From positions 28,060-92,059 of IMG/VR virus record IMGVR_UViG_3300025789_000028: DNA of 64,000 nucleotides. One strand, 5' to 3'. This document shows, one piece after another, positions 7,073 through 41,954 of the stretch. The position numbers and the translations under genes are program-made. The notes below the pieces were generated by a model. That model had not been told where the DNA came from and made no database searches. It worked only from the letters and a program-made list of their open reading frames with translations. Within the stretch, counting starts at the first letter, position 1, and each line of letters starts with the position of its first letter. The stretch comes from a virus.

Positions 7073-7079
7073 ATACAAT

Positions 7080-7634
7080 ATGCGTGATATTATTACATTA
7101 CTTGAGGAAAAAGCTAAGCCTCAAGACATAGAAATCATCCCACTCAATTTCACACCCAATGAAGTTGAACCCATAATGGGCAAGGATACCCTTGAATTGC
7201 ACTATGACAAACTTGCTAAGGGCTACGCAAAACGATTTAACGACAAAGAGGGTGATCCTACATTCAACTATGCAGGAGCATTTTTACATAACATGTGGTT
7301 CCCACAGTTCCGTGAAGTTCGTACTAATAATAAACCAAACGGCCCTATGTTAGGTTTTATCAACAAACATTTCAAGAGTTACGACCAATTCAAAAATGAG
7401 TTTGAAACTCTAGCAATGACAATTCAAGGCTCAGGTTGGGTCTATCTAGCATATGATGGTAAACTAAAAACTATCAAAAACCATGAAGTACGTGATGACA
7501 TACTATTGCTTGTAGACTGGTGGGAACATGCCTGGATATTAGACTACGGCAGTGATAAGAAAAAGTATCTAAAAGAACTTTGGAAGATTATTAATTGGAA
7601 CGTTATTAACACACGATGGGGTAAAAGTTTATGA
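7080..7634 (+). CDS. Fe/Mn superoxide dismutase
   Basis: LHYDKL..GY, FLHN, QGSGW, DWWEHAW metal ligands. Confidence 0.9.
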   Translation: MRDIITLLEEKAKPQDIEIIPLNFTPNEVEPIMGKDTLELHYDKLAKGYAKRFNDKEGDPTFNYAGAFLHNMWFPQFREVRTNNKPNGPMLGFINKHFKSYDQFKNEFETLAMTIQGSGWVYLAYDGKLKTIKNHEVRDDILLLVDWWEHAWILDYGSDKKKYLKELWKIINWNVINTRWGKSL

Positions 7635-7954
7635 TTACAGTAACCGAATCAGCACAAGAAAAAATTAAACAAGTTTTGTCAGAGGAAGGCCCTACAGCCA
7701 AACTACGAATGTTCATTCAAGGTGGCGGATGCGCTGGCTTTAGTTATGGATTTGCAATTGAAGACGATCAAAACGATGATGATTTTGTAGTTCCTGCAGG
7801 CCCGTCAACTATTTTAATAGATGCAATGTCTATTGAATATCTAAGAGGTGCAACCGTAGACTTTAAAGATGACCTAGAAGGTTCACGTTTCGCAATTGTT
7901 AATCCTCAGGCGACAAGCACATGCGGATGTGGCTCAAGTTTCTCAGCTGGATAA
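7631..7954 (+). CDS. erpA: A-type Fe-S carrier protein (ErpA/IscA)
   Basis: GGGCAGFSY and TCGCGSSF motifs. Confidence 0.9.
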   Translation: MITVTESAQEKIKQVLSEEGPTAKLRMFIQGGGCAGFSYGFAIEDDQNDDDFVVPAGPSTILIDAMSIEYLRGATVDFKDDLEGSRFAIVNPQATSTCGCGSSFSAG

Positions 7955-8349: not shown

Positions 8350-9456
8350 ATGAGCATACCAAATCAACAGAACATTAATATTGGGCTTCCAAACGAATCT
8401 ATCGGAAGCGATTCATTATTCACGGCATTTACAAAAACACAAGACAACTTCAGTCAGTTATTTTCTTGTGCTAGTCCATACGTATCATTCATAGGTAACA
8501 CCGGCATCAATACCAGTGCTAATGTTAGCAACGGATCAATTACTATTACTAACACCGGTGTCACAGAATTAGTTGCTGGTACAGGGGTTACATTGTCAGG
8601 AAACACCGGGGTCGTTACTATTTCTAGTAGCGGTGGTGGTAATGGCGGCGGCGGAACCGTAACAAGCATAGCTGTAATTCCAGTGTCAAACACACGACTA
8701 ACTGTGTCAGGAAGTCCTATCGTATCAGAAGGCAATATATATGTAGATTTAGCGACAAGCAATGTTAGTGCTGGTACATATACAAATCCAACAGTTACAG
8801 TAGATGCATATGGAAGAATCACTAGTGCTTCAAACAACACAGTATCAGGTACTGTTACGAGCATTGGATTGACTCCTGGACCGGGCATACAAATCAACGG
8901 TGGACCAATCACAAGCAATGGTAACATTACTGTTACTAACACAGGTGTTACAAGATTAAATCAAGGTCCTGGTATTGCATTGTCAGGTGGCAACGGTAAC
9001 GTTACTATTAGTGCAACTACATTAGGTGGAACAGTAACAGGTGTAAGCGTAGCAAGTAACGCATTAGTGGTTACAGGAAGTCCAGTAACTACATCAGGTA
9101 CTATCACAGTTGATTTGCCAGCAAATGTTCCTGTGACAGGACAACTATTACTAAGTGGTAGTGATAATTTAGGTAACGGTGCTGCCGCAAACTTAAATGT
9201 AACAGCAAGTTATTTCTCAACATCAGGTGGTCCTTATACAGCAACATTAGCCGCAGGTACAACAGGACAAATCAAAACATTTATGTGTGCAAGTCATGCG
9301 TTGGGATATGACATGGTAATCACAGTTACTAACGCAGGATGGAAATCAAGCGGTACCGGAACAATCACATTTACTGCTACAGGACAAGGATGCACTCTTC
9401 AATATATTAATAGTAAGTGGTTCTGTATTGGCAACAACGGCACAACATTCGCATAA
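8350..9456 (+). CDS. virion fibre/structural protein
   Basis: Gly/Thr-rich repeats (GTVTSI, TVDAYGRITSAS); ATAAATA motif upstream. Confidence 0.75.
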   Translation: MSIPNQQNINIGLPNESIGSDSLFTAFTKTQDNFSQLFSCASPYVSFIGNTGINTSANVSNGSITITNTGVTELVAGTGVTLSGNTGVVTISSSGGGNGGGGTVTSIAVIPVSNTRLTVSGSPIVSEGNIYVDLATSNVSAGTYTNPTVTVDAYGRITSASNNTVSGTVTSIGLTPGPGIQINGGPITSNGNITVTNTGVTRLNQGPGIALSGGNGNVTISATTLGGTVTGVSVASNALVVTGSPVTTSGTITVDLPANVPVTGQLLLSGSDNLGNGAAANLNVTASYFSTSGGPYTATLAAGTTGQIKTFMCASHALGYDMVITVTNAGWKSSGTGTITFTATGQGCTLQYINSKWFCIGNNGTTFA

Positions 9457-9480
9457 TAAGAATAATAGGAATTATAGACC

Positions 9481-12400
9481 ATGGCAAATATTGGAAACAT
9501 AGACAGTATTAAAATCACACAGTTAACGAGTATAGGAGCTAATATTGCTGCCAATACACTAATCCCTGTGGTTAACATGGCTAACTTGAGCAATCCTATT
9601 ACTCAGAAAAGCACATTACAAAATGCTGCCAATTATATATTAAACAATGCAGGTACTGCTACATTTCCCCCTGCATTGCAATCAAATCTTGCACTATCTG
9701 TTGCAAACGCTGCACAACCAAACATTACTAGTGTAGGTACATTACAATCATTAACTGTTGCAGGTAATACAGTATTACCTGATGTTAGTTTAGTAAAAAT
9801 TCAAGGTGGCAACAACGGACAGTTCTTACAGACAAACGGCAATGGCGTATTAGATTGGGCTATTCCACCTAGTGGTAATGTTACTAACTATCCAGGTGGT
9901 GCCAATACTCAGATACAATTTAACACTAGTGGCACATTTGCAGGTAGTGATGCATTTACGTTTGACGGTAATAATGTTGCTATCACAGGTGCTAATTTTA
10001 TAGCCAATCCAGGTGCATATATATTATAAGTATACGGTGACAGTGCATACATGGGTTCACTAACAGACGGTGGTGTTTTAGTACAAACTGCTAACACAAC
10101 TATTAATACTGATAACACAACAATTGGTTCTAGTAATGTATGGAATTTCAATAGTACTACAGGCAATTTAACATTACCAGGTAACACATTTGCAGTTAAC
10201 TATGCCAATGGTGATCAAGTATCATTAGGTGGCACTTCAAACACTATTCAAGAGGGCCCGTCACTAGCATACATTGATGGCGTTGGTGGTAATTTTGTTG
10301 TTAGTATTAGCGACTCTGATTCAGTATGGACATTTGGTGTAGGTGGTGACATTACATTCCCTGGCGGAGGTGTTCAACATGGTGCATACGGTGGTCCTGA
10401 CTTCCCATCAGTAACTGGTAACAGTAGCAAATACTTATATACTGACGGCACTCAACTACTTTGGGAAACTGTGTCAGGCGGCAATGGTTCACCTGGTGGC
10501 AACACAACAGAGATTCAATACAACAGTAATGGTGCATTTGCAGGCAGTGATGCATTTACTTTTGATGGTGGTAATATTACAATCACCGGTGCAAACTTTG
10601 TAGCCAATCCTGGTGCATACATATTAGAAGTCTATGGTGCTAATGCATTCATGGGTTCATTTACTGATGGTGGTGTTTTGGTCGAAAATGCCACTACAAC
10701 AATCAATACAGGCAACACAGTTATTGGTAGTACAGGAAGTACTTGGACATTTGATAACACCGGTAATTTAACATTGCCCGGAAATACATTTACTATTAAT
10801 TATGCCAATGGTGCGCAAGCACAATTAGGTGGTTATATTGCTAACTTTATATTCCCTACACCAAGTAGTAACACAAGCACAATAGGTGTCAATGACGGTA
10901 GTGATATTGTTATTAATCCAACATATGGTGGTAGTAGCCCAGCATATATCAATGTTCCCGGTAGCATCAATGGACCAACCACTGAAGCACTTCAAATTTA
11001 TAATGGCTATTCTTTAGGTAATGGTAGTGCCGCCGCAGTATCAATTGGTGCTAGTGCAATTGATGGTATCACTATATTTGGTGATGGTAGCGTTGTAACA
11101 TCAAACACATTAACTGTGCCAGCTAGTGACAATGGTAGTATCATATTCAGCGACAACGGCACAGACAATAACGGTAGTTTAAAGGTAGACGGCGGTCTTA
11201 ACATGACATTAAGTGCTAATAGCAACTTCTATGTTAAACAAGCAGGACAAGACAGACTTGCTATAACAGATGGCAATACTGATTTAATGGGAAGTACCAA
11301 TGTTGTTATTCATTCAAACAAGGCAGGTACTGAATATAACTGGGTATTTAGTAATACAGGTAGTTTAGCAGTTCCTGGCAATATTACCAATGCTAATGTT
11401 ATTTCTGCAAACGTAGTTAATACTGCAAATGTGAATACTGATTTTATATATGCAAATAATGGGTTGCAATTATCAGGAGTAAGTGCAAACATATTAATGA
11501 ACGGTGGTTACATCCTTGGTGCTAGTGAAATTCAAATTGGCAATACAGATGCGTTACTGCTAGGTCAAAATGCAGTATTACTTATGACTGGTAATAGTGC
11601 AAATTATGTCGAAGCCGCATTAATTAATCAAAATTCAAACTCATCAGGAGACTTTACTGTATACGCTGACAACGGCAACGCTGATGCAGGTTATGTCGAT
11701 ATGGGTATTACAGGATCTGCATACAATGTACCTAACACAGGATTGACACAACCCGGTGATGGATATTTCATTGTTTCTGGCGTACCAACTTCAGGTGGTA
11801 ATTTAATTATCGCAACTGCAGGTACAGGCTCAAACAATGACATTGTATTTGGTAACGGATATGACACCGGTAATGAAGTAATGCGTTTTGAAAACACATT
11901 GCAAACATTCCAAATTAAACCTAATACAGTTTCAAGTAATACAACAACTGGTGCATTAACAGTAGCAGGTGGTGTAGGTATCGGTGGTGATCTAAACATA
12001 GGTGGCAACTTAACACTTCCAAACAATAGTGTTATCAATGAAACTACTATAGTAGTTAGTGGCGCCAACACAACTGCAATCACATTAACCCCGGCGACTG
12101 GATCGAATGCAGATCAAAAATTATTAGTCTATCCTACAATATTAAGTGACAACAATCATCTACACTTAACATCAGGCAACTTATATAACACTGAGTTATA
12201 TTTTGGTAATGATGACTTGTATGTGAAATTAGCAAATACAGGTAACATCATTATCAACAGTAACAATGGTAATGGAAATAGCGGTCAATGGGAATTCGGA
12301 GTTGATGCTACATATGGTTTTGGATTGTTGAAGGGAACCGGTAATGGCGGTGGTTTGTATACAGATGGAGATTTTGTAGGCGTATATGCTGAGGATCTAA

Positions 12401-32179: not shown

Positions 32180-32253
32180 TGGAGCGGGATACCAGAATCG
32201 AACTGGTCACTAAACCTTGGCAAGGTTTCGTTTTACCGATAAACTAATCCCGC
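32180..32253 (-). tRNA. tRNA-Gly(GCC)
   Basis: cloverleaf, loop TTGCCAA, encoded CCA. Confidence 0.93.
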
Positions 32254-32262
32254 ATTATTTTC

Positions 32263-32652
32263 TCAATATAGAGGTAAGCCTTGCGCTTTTCTTCCTCTAC
32301 CTTTATTTGCACCGCCTAAAAATTCAGTTTGACTATGACAATTAGGACATATCAATCTTAAATTATCAGGACTATCATTTCCCGGATCACCGTTTACATG
32401 ATCTACATGAAGTACTAGCTTTTTGTTTTGCCATTCACTTACACCGCATACTTCACATTTATAACCTCTGTCTTCTGCTAAATATCTCCTAGCAGTTGAC
32501 CTTTCAATTCTTTTCAAATTACCGTTATACCATTCTTTTTTATGTAAAAAAGATTTATGCAATCCGTTACATACATTAGAACAATATTTTCCTGTTTTAT
32601 GATGAGGATTAAATTCAAAATCCTTATTACAATTTACACAATTTGCTTTCAT
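32263..32652 (-). CDS. HNH endonuclease (probable homing type)
   Basis: CEVC...HVDHVNG...NLRLICPNCH. Confidence 0.9.
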   Translation of the reverse strand: MKANCVNCNKDFEFNPHHKTGKYCSNVCNGLHKSFLHKKEWYNGNLKRIERSTARRYLAEDRGYKCEVCGVSEWQNKKLVLHVDHVNGDPGNDSPDNLRLICPNCHSQTEFLGGANKGRGRKAQGLPLY

Positions 32653-32708
32653 AGTAGAGTTCTCCTTTAGAGTATTTATACTCTACCGCTAAAAACGCAT
32701 AATTTTAT

Positions 32709-32891
32709 TTAGCTTCCTGTTAAGCTATATAAAATAATTGTGTTAAACGTTTCACCCTCAAGATTCAAATTAAGTGTGATTTGATCATTGTTAATTCCAT
32801 ACATATCAGGTTCAATAGCATATGACAATGTAAGATTGTCTTTTAAATACTGCTTAATTTGTGCTTGTAGTGTCGGGTCTAATGGATCCAT
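32709..32891 (-). CDS. hypothetical protein
   Basis: 60 aa; SD AGGA. Confidence 0.55.
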   Translation of the reverse strand: MDPLDPTLQAQIKQYLKDNLTLSYAIEPDMYGINNDQITLNLNLEGETFNTIILYSLTGS

Positions 32892-32908
32892 GATATTTCC
32901 TATGTAAT

Positions 32909-32982
32909 TGGATGCGGGTGACAGATTCGAACTGCCGATGCACCTGGCTTATGAGACCGGTGTGGTGACCACCCTACCCGCG
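32909..32982 (-). tRNA. tRNA-Met(CAT), initiator-like with reduced D-arm
   Basis: loop CTCATAA; C1/A72 mismatch; CCA. Confidence 0.8.
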
Positions 32983-32990
32983 TAATTTAT

Positions 32991-33173
32991 TTATTCATCT
33001 TTGACAGTATCTTTAACTGCCCGAACGTTTTCTTTTTCTTCTACGACCTCTTCCGGTAACGGTGGAGGTACGTATCTTGGTTTAGGTTCTTTCTTTCCAA
33101 AGATAGCATCCATTCTATCATCGAATTCAGACAGAGGAATGCTCATTGGTCTTGGCCTATCACCCTTACTCAT
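32991..33173 (-). CDS. hypothetical protein
   Basis: MSKGDRPRP..., coupled to ppiC stop. Confidence 0.65.
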   Translation of the reverse strand: MSKGDRPRPMSIPLSEFDDRMDAIFGKKEPKPRYVPPPLPEEVVEEKENVRAVKDTVKDE

Positions 33174-33442
33174 TATGCAGTCCTCTTGACCAAATGATAA
33201 CCAAACTGTGTTTGAACCGGTCCAACAACAACACCTACCGGGTTATTGAATGCTGCCTCTTCAAAAGGTTTTACCATTTGTCCTCGACCAAATAATCCTA
33301 AATCGCCACCTTGACGACCACTTGGGCACTTGCTATGTTGACTTGCTAATATAGCAAAATCAGCGCCGGACTTGATTTGCTCTTGTAAGTTAACTGCTTC
33401 TGCTAAAGAAGGTACTAAAATGTGACTTGCTCTTACCTGCAT
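33173..33442 (-). CDS. ppiC: parvulin peptidyl-prolyl isomerase
   Basis: ASHILV, HSKCPSG..GGDLG.F.RGQMV.PFE, TQFGYH. Confidence 0.95.
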   Translation of the reverse strand: MQVRASHILVPSLAEAVNLQEQIKSGADFAILASQHSKCPSGRQGGDLGLFGRGQMVKPFEEAAFNNPVGVVVGPVQTQFGYHLVKRTA

Positions 33443-33656
33443 AAATTTCCTTTATTCTGCTTCTACGTTAGTTGTATTGCCTGCACGTCCGCCGCCTGTT
33501 TGTTGCTCTGGTTGTGCTGTTGGGCTTTTTTTGTTTTGTGTGTATAAGAAAGCGCCGATGATAATTGCTACGATTAATGCTCCAATGATAAACATAATAA
33601 TCTCCTTTGTGTTGAGACTAATATTTATCATAATTCTATAGCATAAAAAATATGAA

Positions 33657-33732
33657 TGGTAGAAGTGGTGAGACTCGAACTCACGATAAACACCGTATGA
33701 AGGTGGCGCATTAGCCGCTATGCTACACTTCT
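33657..33732 (-). tRNA. tRNA(CAT), Met or Ile2
   Basis: cloverleaf, loop TTCATAC, CCA. Confidence 0.85.
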
Positions 33733-33738
33733 ATTGTT

Positions 33739-33813
33739 TGGTGCGACCTACTGGATTCGAACCAGTCCCGTAAGAATTATGAGTTCTCGGCACTACCTCT
33801 ATGCTAAAGTCGC
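33739..33813 (-). tRNA. tRNA(CAT), Met or Ile2
   Basis: cloverleaf, loop CTCATAA, CCA. Confidence 0.88.
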
Positions 33814-33874
33814 ATAATATTTGGTGGACTGTGTAGAAACCTATGAATTCATAGGTTTTTATGTATAATACAGA

Positions 33875-34066
33875 TTAAGCGTAAGATTCTTGGCCAGCAA
33901 TCTGCAAAACACAAAGTAATGTGGTAGCCTCATTAAAGATTTTAGATTGTAAACCTAAAGCCTGTTGTTCTGACGCATATTCATGCGCCTGCGCTAGTGT
34001 TTCAAATTCAGTATAATTTACTGAAAGAACATCATCGATCCAATTTTGTACTGATACTGTAAACAT
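33875..34066 (-). CDS. hypothetical protein
   Basis: paralogue of the adjacent ORF (EF....A..A.E......KI/V..E, ends YA). Confidence 0.65.
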   Translation of the reverse strand: MFTVSVQNWIDDVLSVNYTEFETLAQAHEYASEQQALGLQSKIFNEATTLLCVLQIAGQESYA

Positions 34067-34068
34067 GA

Positions 34069-34278
34069 TTATGCGTATGTGTTAATTTCTGCGTCAACAA
34101 AGAATTCATATAACAAGTGATAATACTCATCATATACCTTTGTACTGAACCCACGTCCGTGATGTTCTGTTGCGTGTGCAACTGCTTCATCTCTTGAATC
34201 AAATTCAAAAGCCTGTACATTCAATGCGCCATCGTCTCCGTAACTATGAATGTGTGAAATGTGTTTTCTACCGTGCAT
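34069..34278 (-). CDS. hypothetical protein
   Basis: SD GGAG; paralogue of 33875..34066. Confidence 0.65.
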   Translation of the reverse strand: MHGRKHISHIHSYGDDGALNVQAFEFDSRDEAVAHATEHHGRGFSTKVYDEYYHLLYEFFVDAEINTYA

Positions 34279-34289
34279 GTTATTCTCCG

Positions 34290-35339
34290 TTATTTAAATC
34301 TTTTGTACCATATCTCGGCACTCTTATTAGTATATTTAGTCAAACTAAACTGATTTAGTCTAACATTGATAGCAGGAAAGTTATATGCACGATTCAATGC
34401 TTTAGTAATATCTGCGCTATCAGTAGGGTCAGAACACCCTGTTGCTAACCACGGAATTTCTGTTGTGCCAACTAAAGGGATACCCTCACTAATCAAATCT
34501 GCACCAACAATATTAAATGTTTCACTGAAATTACATTGCATGCCTATGTCCATATCAGAACACAAATGCAAAAATTCTTCATGGGGTGCCCAATCATGTC
34601 TAATTAATCTATGCCCTGCACTATAAAGATGTGCAAAGAAGCCCTCTAGATTATGTAGTACAGGTTGACCTTTCATTTCAACACGACCTGCATTGATATG
34701 AAAATGCAATTTTTTACCTTGTTGAGTAGCAAAGTCAAGTGCGGCTACTGCTTGAACCATGTGATTCTTTAATGGTCTAACAGCACCAAAACATCCTACA
34801 TCAATATGGTCCTTAGTCTTATAAATTTTTCTTGGTGGACTAAATTTCTGTGGATAGTAATTGGGTAGATAAAAGACTTTCTTCAATGTTTCACTATCAC
34901 TCCAACGATTAACAGTTTGTAAGTAAGTTCTAATTTCACGCAACATTCTAGGTGCGTTTACACCAATACTAATGTTTTCAAAATGACTATAGTCACCGAT
35001 CCAATTCATTGCCATGCCTTCGCCAGCCATGAAAGGCATCTCACTATGAATGCGAACAATCCACTTTACATTAGGATGTAATTTACAAAGTGATGTGAAC
35101 TTACTGGGAACAACCCATAATGCTTCAATAATAACATAGTCTGGATTGTGTTTAGTAACTAGTCTGTCAATACAATTATTATCGATTGCAACTTCCATGA
35201 CTGATTTAATACCAACTTTATTCAGCATTCTATTAACAAATGATGCAGAATTGTATAGACCTGTAGTCAATCCAATTTTAGTATCTACTTTTTCACTATA
35301 ATTTTCTCTGCGTTTGAGAATGAATAAAATTTTCGACAT
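34290..35339 (-). CDS. GT-B fold (GT4-like) glycosyltransferase
   Basis: FGAVRPLKN and SETFNIVGAD..SEGIPLV motifs. Confidence 0.72.
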   Translation of the reverse strand: MSKILFILKRRENYSEKVDTKIGLTTGLYNSASFVNRMLNKVGIKSVMEVAIDNNCIDRLVTKHNPDYVIIEALWVVPSKFTSLCKLHPNVKWIVRIHSEMPFMAGEGMAMNWIGDYSHFENISIGVNAPRMLREIRTYLQTVNRWSDSETLKKVFYLPNYYPQKFSPPRKIYKTKDHIDVGCFGAVRPLKNHMVQAVAALDFATQQGKKLHFHINAGRVEMKGQPVLHNLEGFFAHLYSAGHRLIRHDWAPHEEFLHLCSDMDIGMQCNFSETFNIVGADLISEGIPLVGTTEIPWLATGCSDPTDSADITKALNRAYNFPAINVRLNQFSLTKYTNKSAEIWYKRFK

Positions 35340-35413
35340 GTATGGTGTATTGCTTTCGTTAGTCAAATATTTATCGGAATAAACTACGACTGTATATTAA
35401 GTTAATGTGACAA

Positions 35414-35487
35414 TGGTACCCAGTAGAGGTAACGCTCCTCTGTCGCACGATTATCAGTCGTGTGCTCTACTTTTGAGCTAACCGGGT
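35414..35487 (-). tRNA. tRNA-Ile(GAT), non-canonical T-loop
   Basis: loop CTGATAA; T-loop AGCGTTA; CCA. Confidence 0.85.
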
Positions 35488-35493
35488 AAATTT

Positions 35494-35571
35494 TGGAGGT
35501 GCGAGTCAGATTTGAACTGACGGTTTTACGGATTTGCAATCCGTTGCATTGGACCACTCTGCCACCGCACC
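35494..35571 (-). tRNA. tRNA-Cys(GCA)
   Basis: loop TTGCAAA; U73; CCA. Confidence 0.93.
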
Positions 35572-35574
35572 GTG

Positions 35575-35700
35575 TTAATGATTTAGTTTTGCTATTGCGC
35601 CCAAAACACAATGAATGTCTAAATGCAGTCTATGAGCAATTTCAGTTGCGTCTAGATGCCTATCTAATAACTCTTTAACTTGCATTACGATGTATGACAT
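35575..35700 (-). CDS. 41 aa helix-turn-helix-like protein (not in ORF track)
   Basis: MSYIVMQVKELLDRHLDATEIAHRLHLDIHCVLGAIAKLNH; SD GGGAG. Confidence 0.6.
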   Translation of the reverse strand: MSYIVMQVKELLDRHLDATEIAHRLHLDIHCVLGAIAKLNH

Positions 35701-35766
35701 AGAATCTCCCGTCTATACATATATAACGCCTCAGAAGTCATTCCTGTTGACATGTTTTGGGTATCT

Positions 35767-35856
35767 TGGTGGAGAGCCAGGGAGTCGAACCCTGTGACCG
35801 TATTACTACGGTCTACGGATTAGCAATCCGCTGCATTACCATCCTGCCCGCTCTCC
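35767..35856 (-). tRNA. tRNA-Ser(GCT)
   Basis: loop TTGCTAA; long variable arm; CCA. Confidence 0.92.
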
Positions 35857-35863
35857 ATTATCT

Positions 35864-35951
35864 TGGAGGAAGATGTGAGATTCGAACTCACGGGACCTTT
35901 CGGACCTCTAGTTTTCAAGACTAGTGCAATCGACCACTCTGCCAATCTTCC
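35864..35951 (-). tRNA. tRNA-Ser(TGA)
   Basis: loop CTTGAAA; long variable arm; CCA. Confidence 0.93.
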
Positions 35952-35989
35952 GTATACTATATTTAACTATAAAAAATTACATTGTTGAA

Positions 35990-36203
35990 TTTGTAAGTTG
36001 TGCCACCATCGTTATTGACACCATTCACCCGTGTAATTAAGCCGGCCGGGACTCGGTACGTTACTTGGGCTCCATCCAGATGATACTCATTGTATGCCGA
36101 TCCCACTCAAGCGATCAGCCGGGTAACGACCCCGCAACCTTCTACTAACTTAGTCCTTCGAAGAAACCTCATTAGCGTGACTTTACTTGCTAACACTTAC
36201 AAA
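35990..36203 (-). ncRNA. putative structured ncRNA (~214 nt)
   Basis: closing stem TTTGTAAGT/ACTTACAAA; GC-rich internal hairpins; no credible ORF. Confidence 0.6.
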
Positions 36204-36206
36204 ACT

Positions 36207-36299
36207 TGGCGTATGAAGCTGGCCTTGCACCCTGCTATCACCATACCTCACTTTTCAGGAAGGTTTTACTGGCACCATCACTCTTCTGGCTTTCATACA
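36207..36299 (-). ncRNA. tRNA-like element ending in CCA
   Basis: TGTATGAA/TTCATACG stem followed by CCA; degenerate T-arm; no clear anticodon arm. Confidence 0.5.
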
Positions 36300-36305
36300 T
36301 AATAT

Positions 36306-36390
36306 TGGTGGAGATGGTTGGACTTGAACCAACAATGCCAGGGGCGGCTGATTTACAGTCAGCTGGGGTTACCAATTTTCCTACATCTCC
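36306..36390 (-). tRNA. tRNA-Tyr(GTA)
   Basis: loop CTGTAAA; variable arm; CCA. Confidence 0.93.
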
Positions 36391-36454
36391 ATTAATTTGA
36401 ATGGTTATTACTAACTCAAGCAAGGGCGTGTGACCGTTGTACTTGAATTAGAAA

Positions 36455-36518
36455 ACCATATAGAAACACACTATGCCACGCTCTGAACCTGGACTCTTAG
36501 TAATGTGTTTTTATATGG
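36455..36518 (-). repeat. long-stem cassette A
   Basis: CCATATAAAAACACATT...AGTGTGTTTCTATATGG. Confidence 0.85.
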
Positions 36519-36636
36519 CGTATCAACAATGCCGTATGCATCCACCATTGCGTCTGTAATTAGTATCCGAGATTCCGAGCCTCGATATCTATCCCGTAGG
36601 TAGCAGTCCCGTGTATGACTTACTAAAAACTGATAT

Positions 36637-36734
36637 ACCATATAGAAACACACTATGGGATTCGAACCCTTCGTTCAGCATCAGAACTTCAAACCTACCC
36701 ACCTGCTAGTAGGAGTTAATGTGTTTTTATATGG
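36637..36734 (-). repeat. long-stem cassette B with T-loop cargo
   Basis: same stem; cargo includes GGGTTCGAATCCC. Confidence 0.85.
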
Positions 36735-36814
36735 AATCCATTGTGTGTAGGGCATCGAAACCTACATTAAGCCCCATAACGGGCCTTTATTACCACTTAT
36801 AAGAACACGGATTC
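36732..36814 (-). ncRNA. degenerate tRNA-like RNA
   Basis: GAATCCG/TGGATTC stem; D-like loop AGTGGTA; T-like GTAGG-TTTCGATGC-CCTAC; ends CCA. Confidence 0.5.
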
Positions 36815-36862
36815 TTGGGGTCATGACTCCCCAATATGGACAGGTTAATTACTCCTGTTTTT

Positions 36863-36934
36863 ACCATATAGAAACACACTACTCTCTTTATAGTCGAAGC
36901 CCCGGACGCTTCTCGTAATGTGTTTTTATATGGT
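36863..36934 (-). repeat. long-stem cassette C
   Basis: same stem; begins at the CCA of tRNA 36931..37005. Confidence 0.85.
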
Positions 36935-37005
36935 GGTTATAGAAGGTAACGATCCTTCCTATGAGGCTTATGAGACCCCTGCATATCCGTCTATGCTATA
37001 TCACC
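36931..37005 (-). tRNA. tRNA(CAT), non-canonical T-loop
   Basis: loop CTCATAA; T-loop ATCGTTA; CCA. Confidence 0.78.
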
Positions 37006-37009
37006 AAAT

Positions 37010-37087
37010 TGGCTCCCCATCTAGGTGACGCTCCTAGCTAATCTCGGATTAACAGTCCGCCGCCTACACCTAGTTTGCTTAAGGGGA
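37010..37087 (-). tRNA. tRNA-Asn(GTT), non-canonical T-loop
   Basis: loop CTGTTAA; T-loop AGCGTCA; G73; CCA. Confidence 0.82.
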
Positions 37088-37095
37088 ATAAAACT

Positions 37096-37174
37096 TGTTC
37101 GGAGTAGTAGGATTCGAACCTACGACCTCCTTGCTCTTAAAGCAGGTGCACTACCCAGGCTGTGCTACACTCCG
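37096..37174 (-). tRNA. tRNA with Pro-type body and TAA anticodon, no encoded CCA
   Basis: C1-G72, A73; loop TTTAAGA versus TTTGGGA in tRNA-Pro 40266..40343. Confidence 0.75.
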
Positions 37175-37179
37175 AAAAA

Positions 37180-37245
37180 TGGAGCAGTCATTACGATTCC
37201 CACGTAAATGTTAGGTGGACCCCAACACGGTTACTATCCGACTGC
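37180..37245 (-). ncRNA. miniature tRNA-like RNA ending in CCA
   Basis: GCAGTC/GACTGC plus TCCA; arms TGTTGG-GGTCCAC-CTAACA and TTACG-TGGGAAT-CGTAA. Confidence 0.55.
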
Positions 37246-37252
37246 AAAAAGA

Positions 37253-37335
37253 TGGTGCCCCAAGCGAGACTCGAACTCGCACGCCTAAGCACTGGCTTCT
37301 AAGACCAGCGTGTCTACCAATTCCACCATCGGGGC
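37253..37335 (-). tRNA. tRNA-Leu(TAG)
   Basis: loop CTTAGAA; variable arm; CCA. Confidence 0.94.
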
Positions 37336-37342
37336 ATAACTT

Positions 37343-37416
37343 TGGAGCGGGGTAAGAGAATCGAACTCTCAGCATTAGCTTGGAAGGCTAAGGTATTACC
37401 ACTATACGAACCCCGC
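37343..37416 (-). tRNA. tRNA-Gly(TCC)
   Basis: loop CTTCCAA; CCA. Confidence 0.94.
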
Positions 37417-37464
37417 AAAATTGATTATGTATTTATATAGGAGGCTATGCCTCCAAAATTCTTA

Positions 37465-37547
37465 TACCATATAGAAACACACTTGATATAGTAAATTACT
37501 TTATCACGGATGAACCCGAATTTAGTCAAATGTGTTTCTATATGGTA
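37465..37547 (-). repeat. long-stem cassette D
   Basis: TACCATATAGAAACACATTTG...CAAGTGTGTTTCTATATGGTA; begins at the CCA of tRNA-Lys. Confidence 0.85.
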
Positions 37548-37619
37548 GAAGCACAGGGACTTGAACCCTGAACCTACCGGTTAAAAGCCGGTTGCTCTAG
37601 CCAGTTGAGCTATACTTCC
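37543..37619 (-). tRNA. tRNA-Lys(TTT)
   Basis: loop CTTTTAA; CCA. Confidence 0.93.
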
Positions 37620-37625
37620 ATAATA

Positions 37626-37700
37626 TGGTCCCTCCGGTCAGAGTCGAACTGACGCTTGTCGGATTAAGAGTCCGCTATGCTACCATAACATCTCGAAGGG
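37626..37700 (-). tRNA. tRNA-Lys(CTT)
   Basis: loop CTCTTAA; CCA. Confidence 0.85.
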
Positions 37701-37766
37701 ATAGTACGTATTAATTTGTCTTTTACGTGCCATCCCTAGACCATACATGGAAGTCTAAAGATGACA

Positions 37767-37790
37767 CTATCGTTTACCTGAACGTTTCAT
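37767..37790 (-). CDS. 7-codon mini-ORF MKRSGKR followed by a hairpin
   Basis: SD AAGGA; ATG AAA CGT TCA GGT AAA CGA TAG. Confidence 0.45.
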   Translation of the reverse strand: MKRSGKR

Positions 37791-37812
37791 GTCATTTCCT
37801 TTATTAAAAACT

Positions 37813-37889
37813 TGGCGCACCGTAGGGGACTCGAACCCCTGGCCTCAACAGTGACAGTGTTGCGATCTAACCAACTGATCTAACGGTGC
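37813..37889 (-). tRNA. tRNA-Asp(GTC)
   Basis: loop CTGTCAC; G73; CCA. Confidence 0.94.
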
Positions 37890-37897
37890 AAATTCTT

Positions 37898-37972
37898 TGG
37901 TACTGGGTACGGGAATCGAACCCGTCTTACAAACGTGAAAGGCTTGTGTCCTAACCGATAGACGAACCCAGC
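37898..37972 (-). tRNA. tRNA-Glu(TTC)
   Basis: loop CTTTCAC; CCA. Confidence 0.93.
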
Positions 37973-37976
37973 AATT

Positions 37977-38208
37977 AATCACTATATGTAAGTATACTAA
38001 AGGAACCATTGTACATCTATCTCTACCACCAAGTAACGTCTACTTGGGGCCTGTACGGTCATTACATCCTATATTATCCGTCATGCTCGGTCACATATGT
38101 ACTCATGCACTTCATGAACTCTGACTATTGGGCGTAGCCGTCACTACTGTCCCCGCACAAAGCTCCTAACGGTATAGGTAACCTTTATAATACTTACATA
38201 TAGTGATT
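37977..38208 (-). ncRNA. putative ~232 nt ncRNA closed by a 19 bp perfect stem
   Basis: AATCACTATATGTAAGTAT / ATACTTACATATAGTGATT. Confidence 0.65.
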
Positions 38209-38237
38209 GCTTCACAGCAATGTATATGATGGTTTAA

Positions 38238-38305
38238 TTTTTAAAGAACGTTGTTGATTTCTCAACTCATGCTATGATTGTATCACAGCAACGAATTATT
38301 GTCAA
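38238..38305 (-). promoter_or_regulatory. sigma70 promoter + boxB-like hairpin + boxA-like sequence
   Basis: TTGACA-17-TACAAT; GTTGA-GAAA-TCAAC; CGTTCTTTAAAAA. Confidence 0.8.
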
Positions 38306-38310
38306 CCTTT

Positions 38311-38513
38311 TTGTAATGTAGTTTAGGCTGATACCTGATAAATGATAGTAGGATTCGAACCTACACGCTGTTTCCAACAGGGACCGGATATGGCCCCTAT
38401 GTCTACCAATTTCATCATATCAACTCCCTTCTATTCGCTCGGCAAAGCTACTGTCAGGGGTCAAGTTTCAGACTGCTTTCAGATTGCCGTCATCAGCCTA
38501 AACTACACTACAA
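38311..38513 (-). ncRNA. long-stem ncRNA enclosing a tRNA-Leu-like domain
   Basis: 22 bp stem; ATGAAATTGGTAGACAT D-arm; variable arm; GTAGGTTCGAATCCTAC T-arm; no CCA. Confidence 0.7.
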
Positions 38514-38514
38514 A

Positions 38515-38596
38515 ATTTTAAAGAACCTTGTTGAGTAGTACGATCACTTTTCTCAACTCATGAATGTATTATAGCACCGAATCGATTTATTGTCAA
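38515..38596 (-). promoter_or_regulatory. consensus sigma70 promoter + hairpin + boxA-like sequence
   Basis: TTGACA-17-TATAAT; GTTGAG...CTCAAC; GGTTCTTTAAAAT. Confidence 0.8.
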
Positions 38597-38614
38597 ATTC
38601 TTGTTTGTACTACT

Positions 38615-39235
38615 TTATGCTACAAATTCCTCACACTCCTTTAGGGTAGTGATAATTTTCAAATTAGGAATCTGTCTTTTAATCACATCTAATTTTTCTT
38701 TTTGGACCAATACCGCATGCGGATTCTTGGGGTCAAGATACAAGTCCTGAATGGGTAAATAGAAGTCAGGAAAATAGTTATGAGTCTTACCTGATCTGTC
38801 AACCCATTTAATAGGTTCAGTAGGCCTTATCCAAACAACACCTAGACTGTCTAATCTCCTCGCAAGACTTTCTTCCCACGAAGAATCTAATAACACTTGA
38901 GTTCCGTCAACTTGAGTATAATACCTAGTTGATTTGACTAGTCTTCGGTGTCCCGAAGCTAGTGCTTTGTCTCTTATTTTTTCCAAAGATTCAGGAGTAT
39001 GTTTATAGTCTTTTCGGGTACTAGCTTTCCCCTTCATACTAGAAACGATTATTCTTCCTTCATCTTTTGCTTTTACAAACTGATTTCTAGGATTTTTAAT
39101 ACATTCCCTAGCTGAAACTAATTTTTCAGCATATTCAATTCGCTTAGGATTCTCATTACACCATCTACTATGGTTTGCTTTATTAGCAGGTGACAATCCC
39201 TCAAATTCTTTTTTACAATGCTTACATATAAACAT
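38615..39235 (-). CDS. putative homing endonuclease (Zn finger, NUMOD3-like, PD-(D/E)XK)
   Basis: CKHC..H..WC; KHTPESLEKI; SSWE...YFPDFYLP..DLYLDPK; start moved off the tRNA to ATG 39235. Confidence 0.8.
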   Translation of the reverse strand: MFICKHCKKEFEGLSPANKANHSRWCNENPKRIEYAEKLVSARECIKNPRNQFVKAKDEGRIIVSSMKGKASTRKDYKHTPESLEKIRDKALASGHRRLVKSTRYYTQVDGTQVLLDSSWEESLARRLDSLGVVWIRPTEPIKWVDRSGKTHNYFPDFYLPIQDLYLDPKNPHAVLVQKEKLDVIKRQIPNLKIITTLKECEEFVA

Positions 39236-39248
39236 ATATACCCTTAAA

Positions 39249-39324
39249 TGGCGCGACCGGAGAGATTCGAACTCCCGACAGACCGGGTAGAAGCCGGTTA
39301 CTCTATCCACTGAGTTACGGTCGC
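39249..39324 (-). tRNA. tRNA-Arg(TCT)
   Basis: loop CTTCTAC; CCA. Confidence 0.94.
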
Positions 39325-39387
39325 ATATATCTATTTATATATAAATGAAGTTTTTTGTACTATCCGTTGAACGAACGCCAGAATAAA

Positions 39388-39474
39388 TGGTGCCCGGAGC
39401 CGGAATCGAACCGGCACGCTCTTTCAAGCGAGAGATTTTAAGTCTCTTGTGTCTACCTATTTCACCATCCGGGC
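39388..39474 (-). tRNA. tRNA-Leu(TAA)
   Basis: loop CTTAAAA; variable arm; CCA. Confidence 0.95.
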
Positions 39475-39477
39475 TAA

Positions 39478-39546
39478 TTTTTTAAAGAACGTTGTTGATT
39501 TCTCAACTCATGCTATGATTGTAGCACCGACTTGATTTATTGTCAA
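39478..39546 (-). promoter_or_regulatory. sigma70 promoter + boxB-like hairpin + boxA-like sequence
   Basis: TTGACA-17-TACAAT; GTTGA-GAAA-TCAAC; CGTTCTTTAAAAA; near-identical to 38238..38305. Confidence 0.8.
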
Positions 39547-39565
39547 CAACTTTTTAAATTAATTT

Positions 39566-39639
39566 TGGCATCCCCCCAGGGACTCGAACCCCGACCAACA
39601 GTTTTGGAGACTGGTATGCTGCCATTACACTAGGGAGAT
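39566..39639 (-). tRNA. tRNA-Trp(CCA)
   Basis: loop CTCCAAA; G73; CCA. Confidence 0.92.
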
Positions 39640-40166
39640 AATTTATACTTTTCTTCTAATTCTGGAGTAACAAAGTTATCAAAACAGAAAAATGCGTTTT
39701 TTCTAGTTTTAGAATTTTTGCTTACAACTCTATGCAGTAAAGTTACATCCACTAAGTATGCTTTTCCATATACCATGCTAGGAGTTTCAATTATCGCCGA
39801 ATCAATAGATTCTTTTAATTGAAAAACTGCATCATTGTTGTTTAATGGAATATGTATTCTAGGATACACGTGTGGCTCATGCCACTCTACATTAAAAGGA
39901 GCCATCAATAATGAAAATCTAAATCTAAAAATCTTAGAAACATATTGGCTGAAAAAATCATCGACTATTTTAAAGTCATTGTCTTTCCATACATTTTCAT
40001 TGGGATTTTCAGTTATTACATTTTCTATTTGATTTTGCCATTGCATGTAACCTTTTGATCCGTTTGTTGATATTTGAGATTTTTTAATTATATCAAATTT
40101 ATAATTTAGAAAATCTAAAATTTCATCAGGAACATCACACAGTTCTGCAAAAGATTTATAACTCAT
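39630..40166 (-). CDS. Asp/Asn beta-hydroxylase-like cupin oxygenase
   Basis: WH..H..PRIHIPL...YLVDVTLLHRV. Confidence 0.65.
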   Translation of the reverse strand: MSYKSFAELCDVPDEILDFLNYKFDIIKKSQISTNGSKGYMQWQNQIENVITENPNENVWKDNDFKIVDDFFSQYVSKIFRFRFSLLMAPFNVEWHEPHVYPRIHIPLNNNDAVFQLKESIDSAIIETPSMVYGKAYLVDVTLLHRVVSKNSKTRKNAFFCFDNFVTPELEEKYKLSP

Positions 40167-40185
40167 CTTTTATTTATAAAGAATT

Positions 40186-40260
40186 TGGTACCTGGACACG
40201 GTTTCGAACCGCGGACCCTCTCCGTGTAAAGGAGACGCTCTACCCCTGAGCTATCCAGGC
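40186..40260 (-). tRNA. tRNA-Val(TAC)
   Basis: loop TTTACAC; CCA. Confidence 0.94.
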
Positions 40261-40265
40261 AATAT

Positions 40266-40343
40266 TGGTCTCGATGGTAGGATTCAAACCTACGACCCTC
40301 TGCTCCCAAAGCAGATGCGCTAATCAGACTGCGCTACACCGAG
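40266..40343 (-). tRNA. tRNA-Pro(TGG)
   Basis: loop TTTGGGA; C1-G72; CCA. Confidence 0.93.
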
Positions 40344-40349
40344 ATATCT

Positions 40350-40424
40350 TGGTGGACCGACGGGGATTCGAACCCCGGACTCTAGAATGCAAATCTAGTG
40401 CGTTCCCAATTACGCCATCAGCCC
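40350..40424 (-). tRNA. tRNA-Ala(TGC)
   Basis: loop TTTGCAT; G3-U70; CCA. Confidence 0.94.
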
Positions 40425-40465
40425 AACTAATCTTACTTATCTTTATTTTACTTAACTAAAAACTT

Positions 40466-40540
40466 TGGTGCCCCCACCATGATTTGAACACGGGACCTAC
40501 CGCTTACAAGGCGGGTGCTCTACCACTGAGCTATAAGGGC
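40466..40540 (-). tRNA. tRNA-Thr(TGT)
   Basis: loop CTTGTAA; CCA. Confidence 0.93.
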
Positions 40541-40546
40541 TTTGTA

Positions 40547-40622
40547 TGGCTCCTCGACCTGGGCTCGAACCAGGGACCAACGGATTAACAGTCCGGCACT
40601 CTACCAACTGAGCTATCGAGGA
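40547..40622 (-). tRNA. tRNA-Asn(GTT)
   Basis: canonical cloverleaf; loop CTGTTAA. Confidence 0.95.
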
Positions 40623-40673
40623 ATACATCTTTATTTAATATGAATTATACATGACCTAACTTTTTATGTCAAG

Positions 40674-41234
40674 TTAAATCTGTATAATTCTACTATGCTT
40701 TGGAACACCTGATAACAAATAATCCATTTGATCTGCAAGTATAGTGCGGTTCTGTAGGATCATGTTTTCATAGTGATTAGGTGCATAAGGTACATATAGC
40801 AATTCAAGTCGTGCTTCTTTAAGAGTTAGACAACCTTTCTTTTGATTACATACTTTACATGCAGTAACCACGTTTGTCCATTCATCCAAACCACCTTTGA
40901 ATCTAGGCATGATATGATCACGACTTAGATGTGAGAAGTTGGGGAAGTGTCCCCCACAATATGCACAAACATGTCGGTCTCTAGCAAACAATGTTCTGTT
41001 TGTCAATGCCACTTTACTGTGCTTAGTAAGGTTAAATCCTGAACCTCTAACTGCTATAATGCTAGTAGTTTCTAAATAACTATCAACACCATTCTTTTGT
41101 GTTCCACCGTGATATCTTGCAACTGTTTCACCTAAACTCCAGGCTACTTGATTCTTTGCATGATAACAGATGGCTTCATCATAGTTAACCCATGCTCGGG
41201 GTATACCTGATATGTCTAGGGCTAGTACTGCCAT
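40674..41234 (-). CDS. HNH endonuclease (McrA-like)
   Basis: LFARD..CAYCG...DHIMPR..GG..W.NVVTAC..CN..K. Confidence 0.9.
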   Translation of the reverse strand: MAVLALDISGIPRAWVNYDEAICYHAKNQVAWSLGETVARYHGGTQKNGVDSYLETTSIIAVRGSGFNLTKHSKVALTNRTLFARDRHVCAYCGGHFPNFSHLSRDHIMPRFKGGLDEWTNVVTACKVCNQKKGCLTLKEARLELLYVPYAPNHYENMILQNRTILADQMDYLLSGVPKHSRIIQI

Positions 41235-41292
41235 GATATCTCCTTACATATATTTAGACATTAAAAATATTTTCTTGTTAAAAAAATATGAC

Positions 41293-41384
41293 TGGTACCA
41301 GCGGAGGGGATCGAACCCTCTCAAGAACGCTAATCTGGCGCTAAAAGGCTTATAAGACCTCCCTGACTTCCAAGTCTCGCTGGC
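41293..41384 (-). tRNA. tRNA with TAT (Ile) anticodon and long variable arm
   Basis: GAGGT-CTTATAA-GCCTT; extra arm AGCGC..GCGTT; CCA. Confidence 0.8.
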
Positions 41385-41390
41385 ATTGTT

Positions 41391-41471
41391 TGGTACCCTA
41401 CCCCGGAGTCGAACCGGGATTAAAACTCTTCCTTTTGAGAGAAGCGACTTTGCCAATTTGTCTAGTAGGGC
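41391..41471 (-). tRNA. tRNA-Leu(CAA), shortened variable arm
   Basis: loop CTCAAAA; CCA. Confidence 0.85.
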
Positions 41472-41480
41472 GTACATTTT

Positions 41481-41556
41481 TGGTACCAACGACTGGAATT
41501 GAACCAGTGACACACGGATTTTCAATCCGTTGCTCTACCGACTGAGCTACATTGGT
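41481..41556 (-). tRNA. tRNA-Phe(GAA)
   Basis: loop TTGAAAA; CCA. Confidence 0.94.
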
Positions 41557-41562
41557 ATTGTT

Positions 41563-41638
41563 TGGGGTGCTGGATGGGACTCGAACCCACAACAACAGGA
41601 ATCACAATCCTGGACTCTACCATTGAGCTACCAACACC
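41563..41638 (-). tRNA. tRNA-His(GTG)
   Basis: loop TTGTGAT; G-1/C73; CCA. Confidence 0.94.
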
Positions 41639-41643
41639 ATATA

Positions 41644-41721
41644 TGGAGCGCCCAGAAGGATTCGAACCTCCGACCCTAACGTTCGTAGCGTTATGCTCTA
41701 GTCCAACTGAGCTATGGGCGC
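41644..41721 (-). tRNA. tRNA-Arg(ACG)
   Basis: loop CTACGAA; CCA. Confidence 0.94.
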
Positions 41722-41726
41722 AATTT

Positions 41727-41802
41727 TGGCAGGGGAGATGAGATTCGAACTCATGATACTGATTTCAAAGACCAGTGCCTTAGGCCTCTAGGCGACACCC
41801 CA
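41727..41802 (-). tRNA. tRNA-Gln(TTG)
   Basis: loop CTTTGAA; CCA. Confidence 0.92.
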
Positions 41803-41863: not shown

Positions 41864-41954
41864 ATGCTATTCTAAAACACACATAGTCCACTCCAGTCAA
41901 TTGAGTGTGCCGCACAGGCTATTATGTTCATCCATATGTGTTTTAGAATAGCAT
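41864..41954 (-). repeat. long-stem cassette E (variant)
   Basis: ATGCTATTCTAAAACACATATGG / CTATGTGTGTTTTAGAATAGCAT, 23 bp with 2 G-U pairs. Confidence 0.75.

Follow-up and report, generated by a model that had tools for sequence, protein, structure and literature searches.

A conserved structured-RNA family with a tRNA-shaped domain in the tRNA islands of large uncultivated phages

A stem-enclosed element lying within the tRNA array of a large phage is, in our firm view, one copy of a conserved structured-RNA family of ~175-210 nt that inhabits the tRNA islands of large uncultivated phages, and we hold the fold described below with the same confidence. The family, which is apparently undescribed so far, is widespread and strongly covarying and has a more elaborate fold than the initial annotation of this locus had noted, in that a compact RNA of ~200 nt joins an obligatory, non-decoding tRNA-shaped domain to a probable pseudoknot and to a probable rRNA-style unit of expression and processing. 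Phage tRNA islands are now viewed as weapons against the tRNA-cleaving defences of the host, and they also hold enigmatic large RNAs, among them GOLLD and ROOL. The small size of the RNA described here makes its synthesis, probing, structure solution and use in pull-downs practical, and the family could render the role of the non-tRNA RNAs of phage tRNA islands directly testable.

The stretch of DNA analysed (64,000 nt, hereafter the window) belongs to an IMG/VR virus record of 92 kb whose CheckV completeness of 26% implies a phage of ~350 kb. ARAGORN reports 32 tRNA genes in the window, at 32180-41802 and all on the minus strand, and the element is found inside this array, on the minus strand at 38309-38515, where a 22-bp stem surrounds a 5' domain and a class-II tRNA-like cloverleaf. 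The strands of the stem (38513-38492 with 38332-38311) form 21 Watson-Crick pairs and one G.U pair, with two further pairs possible on each side. A 216-nt stretch folds at -79.3 kcal/mol compared to a shuffle mean of -50.7 kcal/mol (z = -6.25), a stability equalled by none of 200 shuffles. The stem on which the initial annotation was built is thus real, and the unit that it closes is conserved with covariation in ~30 other loci. The same annotation had placed the element just after a promoter/boxA cassette, and this also proved correct: directly upstream stand a sigma-70 promoter with an extended -10 (TTGACA-17-TATAAT with TG, 38568-38596), matching the consensus at 12 of 12 positions, and, at 38516-38559, a boxB-like hairpin followed by the boxA-like GTTCTTTAAAA (38516-38526). 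Three copies of the promoter/hairpin/boxA cassette are present in the window, and relatives have kept it; promoters homologous to the one at 38568-38596 precede many family members. The next such cassette (38236-38305) opens the following unit, consisting of a 232-nt RNA and then tRNA-Glu, and relatives devoid of the element possess both this type of downstream cassette and the downstream RNA.

Relatives were found by a series of scans. A scan for the boxA cassette led to related jumbo phages, two of which, G001 (352 kb) and G002 (349 kb), are complete genomes. In these, tandem promoters are followed by a homologue of the next RNA of the window (37977-38208) and then by tRNA-Glu, with no element in between; a whole-genome covariance-model search of G001 and G002 likewise found none. 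Since these complete close relatives have no such RNA, it is dispensable for that type of phage. The cassette pattern, searched in metagenome contigs, then yielded three loci (L076, L079 and L081) harboring the whole unit in the same position, with promoter, hairpin, boxA, stem, 5' domain, tRNA-like part and stem in that order. IMG/VR was next scanned with the invariant motif AGGCUGAU(N)GACGGCAAUC, yielding 27 loci of which 25 were true homologues, and two more came from a scan with a 3'-side anchor. Altogether, the motif scans identified ~30 loci homologous to the element, on virus and metagenome contigs reaching 354 kb in length, and every family member derives from a metagenome. Members lie inside tRNA arrays on the same strand as the neighbouring tRNAs at the loci checked, and G000, G006, G007 and G010 each contain one copy.

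Complete members scored 130-189 bits with the covariance model R1 (197 positions, 45 pairs), and two members cut by contig ends scored 164 and 99 bits, compared to 42 bits for the best non-member; the next matches, all at or below 42 bits, were ordinary tRNAs or came from the palindromic stem read on its reverse strand. The window copy reached 177.6 bits (E = 1.5e-43) and its reverse strand 33.6 bits. Two weak full-length matches were set aside upon inspection, one (L079, 5779-5954) being an ordinary tRNA with AU-rich flanks and the other (L030, 5234-5421) a cassette followed by an ordinary tRNA. Rfam 15 holds no family for the element and returned a borderline tRNA match alone, and BLAST searches with the element against GenBank phages and against five related virus records returned T-arm matches only. 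Of the probes used to scan viral sequences, that combining the D arm and the T loop found ordinary tRNAs only, the exact anticodon arm found nothing, and the D arm plus loop found the start of a protein gene, a coincidence; the odd tRNAs of the relative G004 were inspected and are non-homologous. The 18-nt motif is present in 95 stretches of bacterial and archaeal genomes, and because none of the 80 that were examined fits R1, these are regarded as chance matches. A literature search on the motif string returned nothing relevant. A 2023 catalogue of viral structured RNAs has an entry for a motif, 'DNAVirus_1850', found 27 times and with one tRNA-Asp overlap, which might be identical with the family described here.

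The fold was worked out on an alignment of 22 distinct members (A1). RNAalifold recovered from A1 the long stem (P1), a CGGCAA/UUGCCG pairing and the acceptor, D and T stems of the cloverleaf, to which two helices, P3 and P4, were added by inspection of the alignment. In the full model, 94.3% of the cells are paired over the 22 members, as against 79.4% in shuffles and ~38% with slid partners; double changes affect 30 of the 51 pairs, and the covariation score is 0.456 (versus 0.188; none of 500 shuffles reached it). P1, with its leader strand at 38491-38515 and its trailer strand at 38309-38333, contributes 21 pairs, ten of them with double changes, and 97.4% of its cells are paired; its outer part covaries and its inner part, AGGCUGA on the leader and UCAGCCU on the trailer, is invariant across distant phages. 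P3 joins the five nucleotides that follow GUCUG(N)2-4 (CUUGA in the window, 38461-38465) to the five that follow the conserved UUUA located after the acceptor 3' strand (UCAGG, 38334-38338), as indicated by pairing and covariation. All five of its pairs form in 21 of the 22 members, against 12% in cross-partner controls, and it exists in 12 sequence versions, including UCUAA/UUAGA, UCCAA/UUGGA, UUUAC/GUAAA and UCUCC/GGAGA. In this way P3 ties the leader of the tRNA-like arm to its trailer and closes a three-way junction of which the cloverleaf is the third arm. P4 (38426-38460; a CCCU/AGGG helix with an inner GCU/AGC hairpin) pairs the next 3-5 nt after the P3 5' strand with the nucleotides just 5' of a conserved AGU; its covariation (CAUC/GAUG, UUCC/GGAA, CCGU/ACGG) is statistically weak, with 50% for own partners and 38% for cross-partners.

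The loop of P4 is always the 6-nt UUGCCG, the exact complement of the CGGCAA that is always present beside P1 within GACGGCAAUC. The GGCA...TGCC pairing pointed out at the start is present, in the form of CGGCAA at 38489-38484 (invariant in 22 of 22 members) facing UUGCCG at 38445-38440, and the complementarity suggests a candidate pseudoknot crossing P3 and P4; both strands being invariant, covariation is impossible here, and the pseudoknot is one that we infer. Between this strand and P3 lies a small hairpin, CUG-AAAG-CAG, with the conserved GUCUG (38469-38483); its form varies by subgroup and its pairing is partly conserved. On the side of the cloverleaf, the alignment shows two conserved junction strands, AGU (38423-38425) 5' and UUUA (38339-38342, with no CCA) 3' of a 5-bp acceptor-like helix formed by 38418-38422 with 38343-38347. 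Far from being filler, as which it had been treated, the 5' domain is the most conserved part of the RNA, comprising GACGGCAAUC, GUCUG, the UUGCCG loop and the junction residues AGU and UUUA. The proposal that the 22-bp stem locks the tRNA domain holds in part, in that the acceptor end is indeed locked; the real lock, however, is P3 together with the three-way junction next to the acceptor stem, and the 22-bp stem itself is most likely a processing and folding helix, as discussed below.

The compensatory changes also bear on the trivial explanation that the element is a decaying tRNA-Leu pseudogene lying between inverted repeats or else a DNA element, such as a MITE or a recombination site with 22-bp terminal inverted repeats. 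Its insertion-like absence from G001 and G002 would be expected of such an element, and the nearest paralogue in the window is a tRNA-Leu(UAA). Against this, compensatory changes are found in every stem over the 22 distinct members, G.U pairs are tolerated, R1 is strand-specific, the element is present as a single copy per genome and always on the strand of the tRNAs, and its unpaired motifs are invariant. Because the sequences covary, tolerate G.U pairs and are asymmetric between strands, we conclude that the element is neither a pseudogene nor a DNA repeat, an explanation to which we attach almost no probability. Nor do the arms decay at random in the homologues, the observation that had been named at the outset as speaking against a functional mimic; the tRNA shape is under selection.

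The tRNA-shaped domain itself (38343-38422, from ARAGORN and Rfam) falls within a tRNA-like part at 38424-38340 of the minus strand, and consists, beyond the acceptor-like helix, of a D arm (38399-38415), an anticodon-position hairpin (38380-38397), a variable arm (38365-38379) and a T arm (38348-38364). Here the initial annotation was borne out on several counts: the D arm is of the tRNA-Leu type, the variable arm carries a GAAA loop, the T arm is perfect, and the domain is no ordinary tRNA. Its acceptor, D and T stems show covariation, and the D loop retains GG and the T loop UUCRA, as in the cloverleaf of the Rfam tRNA model (RF00005). The closest paralogue in the window, tRNA-Leu(UAA) at 39388-39474, has in common with it the D arm, a variable arm capped by GAAA and the T-arm junction; all four stems differ in sequence between the two and keep their pairing. 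RF00005 gives the element 29.8 bits, just over the gathering score of 29 and with no other Rfam 15 match, versus 42-73 bits for the other 31 tRNAs of the window, and ARAGORN labels it 'tRNA-Asp(atc)'. The anticodon arm is abnormal, as had been noted: its 18 nt allow 5 bp with an 8-nt loop or 6 bp with a 6-nt loop (AUAUCC), a 7-nt loop being impossible. The CCA encoded by 30 of the other 31 tRNAs of the window is absent. As a separate matter, the only other tRNA call of the array without an encoded CCA, at 37097-37175 (minus), has a Pro-like body and a UAA anticodon.

Across the family, the anticodon-position loops range from 3 to 8 nt and are not conserved in sequence, such that the family as a whole lacks a 7-nt loop with U33, a purine at position 37 and an anticodon conserved among orthologues. 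ARAGORN recognises 12 of the 22 members, to which it assigns Asp, Leu, Ile, Pro, Val and Glu anticodons, four being without a three-base anticodon. The top two acceptor pairs are a conserved G.U and a conserved U.U followed by UUUA, and the 3' side runs into P3 and P1; in place of a free CCA end, the acceptor end continues into AGU/UUUA, and the element has neither a free end with an encoded or addable CCA nor a Watson-Crick 1-72 pair. Leader and trailer are both paired beside the acceptor helix, in P4 and P3 respectively.

It could still be argued that the RNA is a delivery cassette for a genuine tRNA, whose scaffold would be a precursor frame with the sole role of timing or protecting maturation, and whose cloverleaf would be cut out by RNase P and 3' nucleases and receive a CCA. 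Release of a tRNA is possible in the subgroup formed by L083, L089 and L095, which has retained the canonical tRNA-Leu(UAG) anticodon loop of 7 nt with U33, anticodon UAG and A37; the tRNA module, moreover, is of class I in some lineages and of class II in others, a variation expected of cargo, the element is located in tRNA arrays, and GOLLD RNAs likewise hold embedded tRNAs. Most loops, however, are of 3-6 or 8 nt, ten of the 22 members are not recognised by ARAGORN, and the conserved G.U and U.U are followed by U73 and A, with no CCA although the true tRNAs of the phage encode theirs. Pairing of leader and trailer right at the acceptor helix is furthermore unfavourable for RNase P and for 3' trimming, and the strongest conservation lies outside the cloverleaf. 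We thus regard a delivery cassette as unlikely. With its locked acceptor end, its missing CCA and the unconstrained loop at the anticodon position, the tRNA-shaped arm is best read, as far as sequence can tell, as a non-chargeable and non-decoding tRNA look-alike. Most members carry class-I tRNA bodies and the window lineage a class-II body; because L083, L089 and L095 keep the canonical Leu(UAG) loop, the sequences suggest that this class-II body descends from a genuine tRNA-Leu. That the body is exchangeable while the elbow and the acceptor/T helix are conserved indicates that what is selected is the generic tRNA shape. Gene-finding programs will take such domains for odd tRNAs, as happened here.

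Among known RNAs, the YrlA class of bacterial Y RNAs (RF02553) has the same general design, with a long stem in which the 5' and 3' ends pair and a tRNA-like module that has conserved T and D arms and is not chargeable. YrlA RNAs are defined by GNCGAA(N)G near the 5' end and by permuted tRNA-like arms, and some of them are phage-encoded (PMC4201824). By analogy, the long stem of the element could bind the Ro60 (Rsr) ring of the host and its tRNA-like module recruit an exonuclease or other effector. The likeness ends, however, at several points. The arms of the element follow the order of a normal cloverleaf, as had been recognised from the start, and it is the acceptor end, not the anticodon end, that is joined to the scaffold; the element has an additional pseudoknot-type 5' domain and neither a Ro-binding motif nor a nearby rsr. 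GNCGAA(N)G is absent from A1, and the RF02553 model does not match the element at E values of up to 10, nor three other member loci, its sole matches (21-24 bits) falling on ordinary tRNAs. A TROVE/Ro60 gene (PF05731), of the type to which YrlA genes lie as close as ~4 kb, is absent from the eight phage records G000-G002 and G006-G010, five of which are at least 92% complete, in searches whose controls were positive. A Y-RNA-like tether thus appears very improbable.

Like the element, GOLLD (RF02032) and ROOL are structured RNAs encoded in phage tRNA islands and can have a tRNA covalently attached. The element might similarly serve as a building block of an RNA-only assembly or bind the ribosome, its tRNA arm and invariant loops providing the contacts. 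It occupies the same genomic niche, GOLLD is present at two member loci (L079 and L083), and its invariant single-stranded 6-mers could form intermolecular as well as intramolecular pairs. At ~200 nt, however, it is far below the 600-800 nt of those RNAs (GOLLD measures ~800 nt), and no result obtained here favours multimers. It has no sequence or model similarity to GOLLD, the RF02032 model finding no match in the window, and its tRNA-shaped part is obligatory and non-decoding, whereas that of GOLLD is an optional true tRNA. Such a role seems to us quite unlikely. The GOLLD copies at L079 (7043-7506) and L083 (4421-4884), which score 202-210 bits and hold an embedded tRNA, are separate units 0.4-3.5 kb downstream of the family members.

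The tRNA-like domain of tmRNA, mascRNA and the 3' tRNA-like structures of plant viruses likewise present a tRNA shape, with a T arm and an acceptor-like helix, within a larger RNA. Theirs has a free or processed 3' end of the CCA type and is charged or cut by RNase P, whereas that of the element is buried in a junction; neither ARAGORN nor Rfam matched a tmRNA or mascRNA at the element. A phage-encoded tmRNA of the beta-proteobacterial, permuted type (117-118 bits) was observed at L090 (4041-4439), ~400 nt upstream of the family member, and its type is a hint that the hosts may be Betaproteobacteria. The tRNA cluster of phage T4 gives rise to small stable RNAs, 'species 1 and 2' (RNA C/D), that are co-transcribed with the tRNAs. 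The element is likened to them by description alone, and no GenBank phage matched it.

Two further readings of the 5' domain were examined and abandoned. A hammerhead ribozyme (a CUGAUGA core, GAAA after stem II and a non-G cleavage site) does not fit, as CUGAU pairs with the invariant AUCAG, 1-nt insertions break CUGAUGA in six of the 22 members, L088 has no GAAA after UUGCCG, and Rfam returned no ribozyme match. A 4-codon mini-ORF (AUG ACG GCA AUC) is contradicted by 1-nt indels between CUGAU and GACGG in six of the 22 members and by the invariant pairing partner.

The closest parallel to the way the element is laid out is the boxB-boxA-boxC leader of rrn operons, in which promoter, hairpin and boxA likewise lead straight into one strand, the 5' one, of a helix exceeding 20 bp; this strand contains a conserved sequence, and its partner is located after the cargo. 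In those operons, the leader-trailer helix cut by RNase III has been described to bear boxA and a conserved boxC on its 5' strand, and antitermination dependent on boxA to protect the untranslated transcript (PMC10250234). Of the features by which such a unit is defined (PMC10250234), those legible in the sequence are found here, namely a promoter, a boxB-like hairpin, a boxA-like sequence and a helix of more than 17 bp bracketing the cargo; loading of Nus factors onto boxA and a cut by RNase III in the helix would complete the definition. The element differs from the rrn leader in that its cargo is a 160-nt RNA instead of rRNA and in that the inner 7 bp of its helix are invariant; that the helix is cleaved would follow by analogy. 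Two tandem promoters (P1-P2, ~75 nt apart) before a boxA leader, as in rRNA operons, were also observed at L023 (1400-1700, minus) and L031 (4000-4200, plus).

In what we consider the best explanation of the whole, to which we would give about an even chance, the element encodes a stable tRNA-mimic RNA excised via this rrn-like boxA/leader-trailer unit. Transcription would start at the rrn-like promoter/boxB/boxA unit or reach the element by read-through from upstream tRNAs, boxA would, as in rrn operons, shield the untranslated transcript from Rho, and P1 would act as the leader-trailer helix cut by RNase III, as in pre-rRNA. Its outer part covaries and comes directly after boxA, as in rRNA operons, and by this analogy the 22-bp stem is most likely a helix for processing and folding; its inner 7 bp, invariant as they are across distant phages, are probably kept in the mature RNA. 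A stable product ~160-200 nt long would result, displaying its tRNA body to a tRNA-recognising factor. With the acceptor end tied down, RNase P, the CCA-adding enzyme and the synthetases could not make a tRNA from it and it would be of no use in decoding; it could instead work as a sponge, decoy or tether, with the invariant P1 and pseudoknot module holding the fold or binding a second partner. The mimic mechanism as such we hold more tentatively, at somewhat less than even chances.

The initial annotation had read the element as a decoy for tRNA-targeting nucleases, synthetases or elbow-binding proteins. Its core, a look-alike that is neither charged nor decoding, stands as the best reading; as to the target, anticodon nucleases are unlikely, because the anticodon-position hairpin differs in every lineage, and the decoy may instead act on proteins that bind the elbow, the T arm or the acceptor helix. 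Since the RNA is missing from close relatives, its function is accessory and lineage-variable, a status that fits host-interaction or counter-defence roles without proving them. More speculatively, and doubtful at present, the family may represent a class of bait RNAs, in which an anchored, unprocessable tRNA body captures or redirects a tRNA-recognising machine of the host, and which would serve counter-defence or takeover under rRNA-like expression. Candidate targets of such a bait would be a tRNA-targeting defence nuclease that reads shape and not the anticodon, RNase P, a modification enzyme or the ribosome, and the invariant helix and pseudoknot module would be an effector or a second binding site.

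Neither a phyletic profile nor neighbourhood clustering revealed a conserved neighbouring or co-occurring protein partner. The profile, which set phages with the RNA (G006, G007 and G010) against phages without it (G001 and G002), returned 17 candidate ORFs, none of them present in G000 and most of them NAD salvage genes (NAMPT, NMNAT-Nudix). The NAMPT and NMNAT-Nudix genes, at 6355-7752 and 9190-10206 of G010 (L259), are common to G006, G007 and G010 with 63-66% identity and are missing from G001 and G002. Neighbourhood clustering returned HNH homing endonucleases only, ORFs of this type recurring near family members in nine loci. In the tRNA island of the window, ORFs of the homing-endonuclease type (HNH, with one weak Phage_endo_I match) lie at 38615-39310, 40674-41234 and 32263-32652.

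Other RNAs were noted in the same island. The next unit downstream of the element is made up of a cassette (B) and the 232-nt RNA (37977-38208, minus), which is closed by a 27-nt inverted repeat (z = -5.4). This RNA has no Rfam match, is conserved directly before tRNA-Glu at five loci (L023, L024, L031, L080 and L082) and looks like a second conserved phage RNA. Finally, the window contains, at 36448-37553 and 41864-41954, four to five long hairpins that have a common stem, CCAUAUA(A/G)AAACACA / UGUGUUUCUAUAUGG, and unrelated loops. The CCA of a preceding tRNA or tRNA-like element forms the start of each hairpin, and they may be processing or terminator modules.
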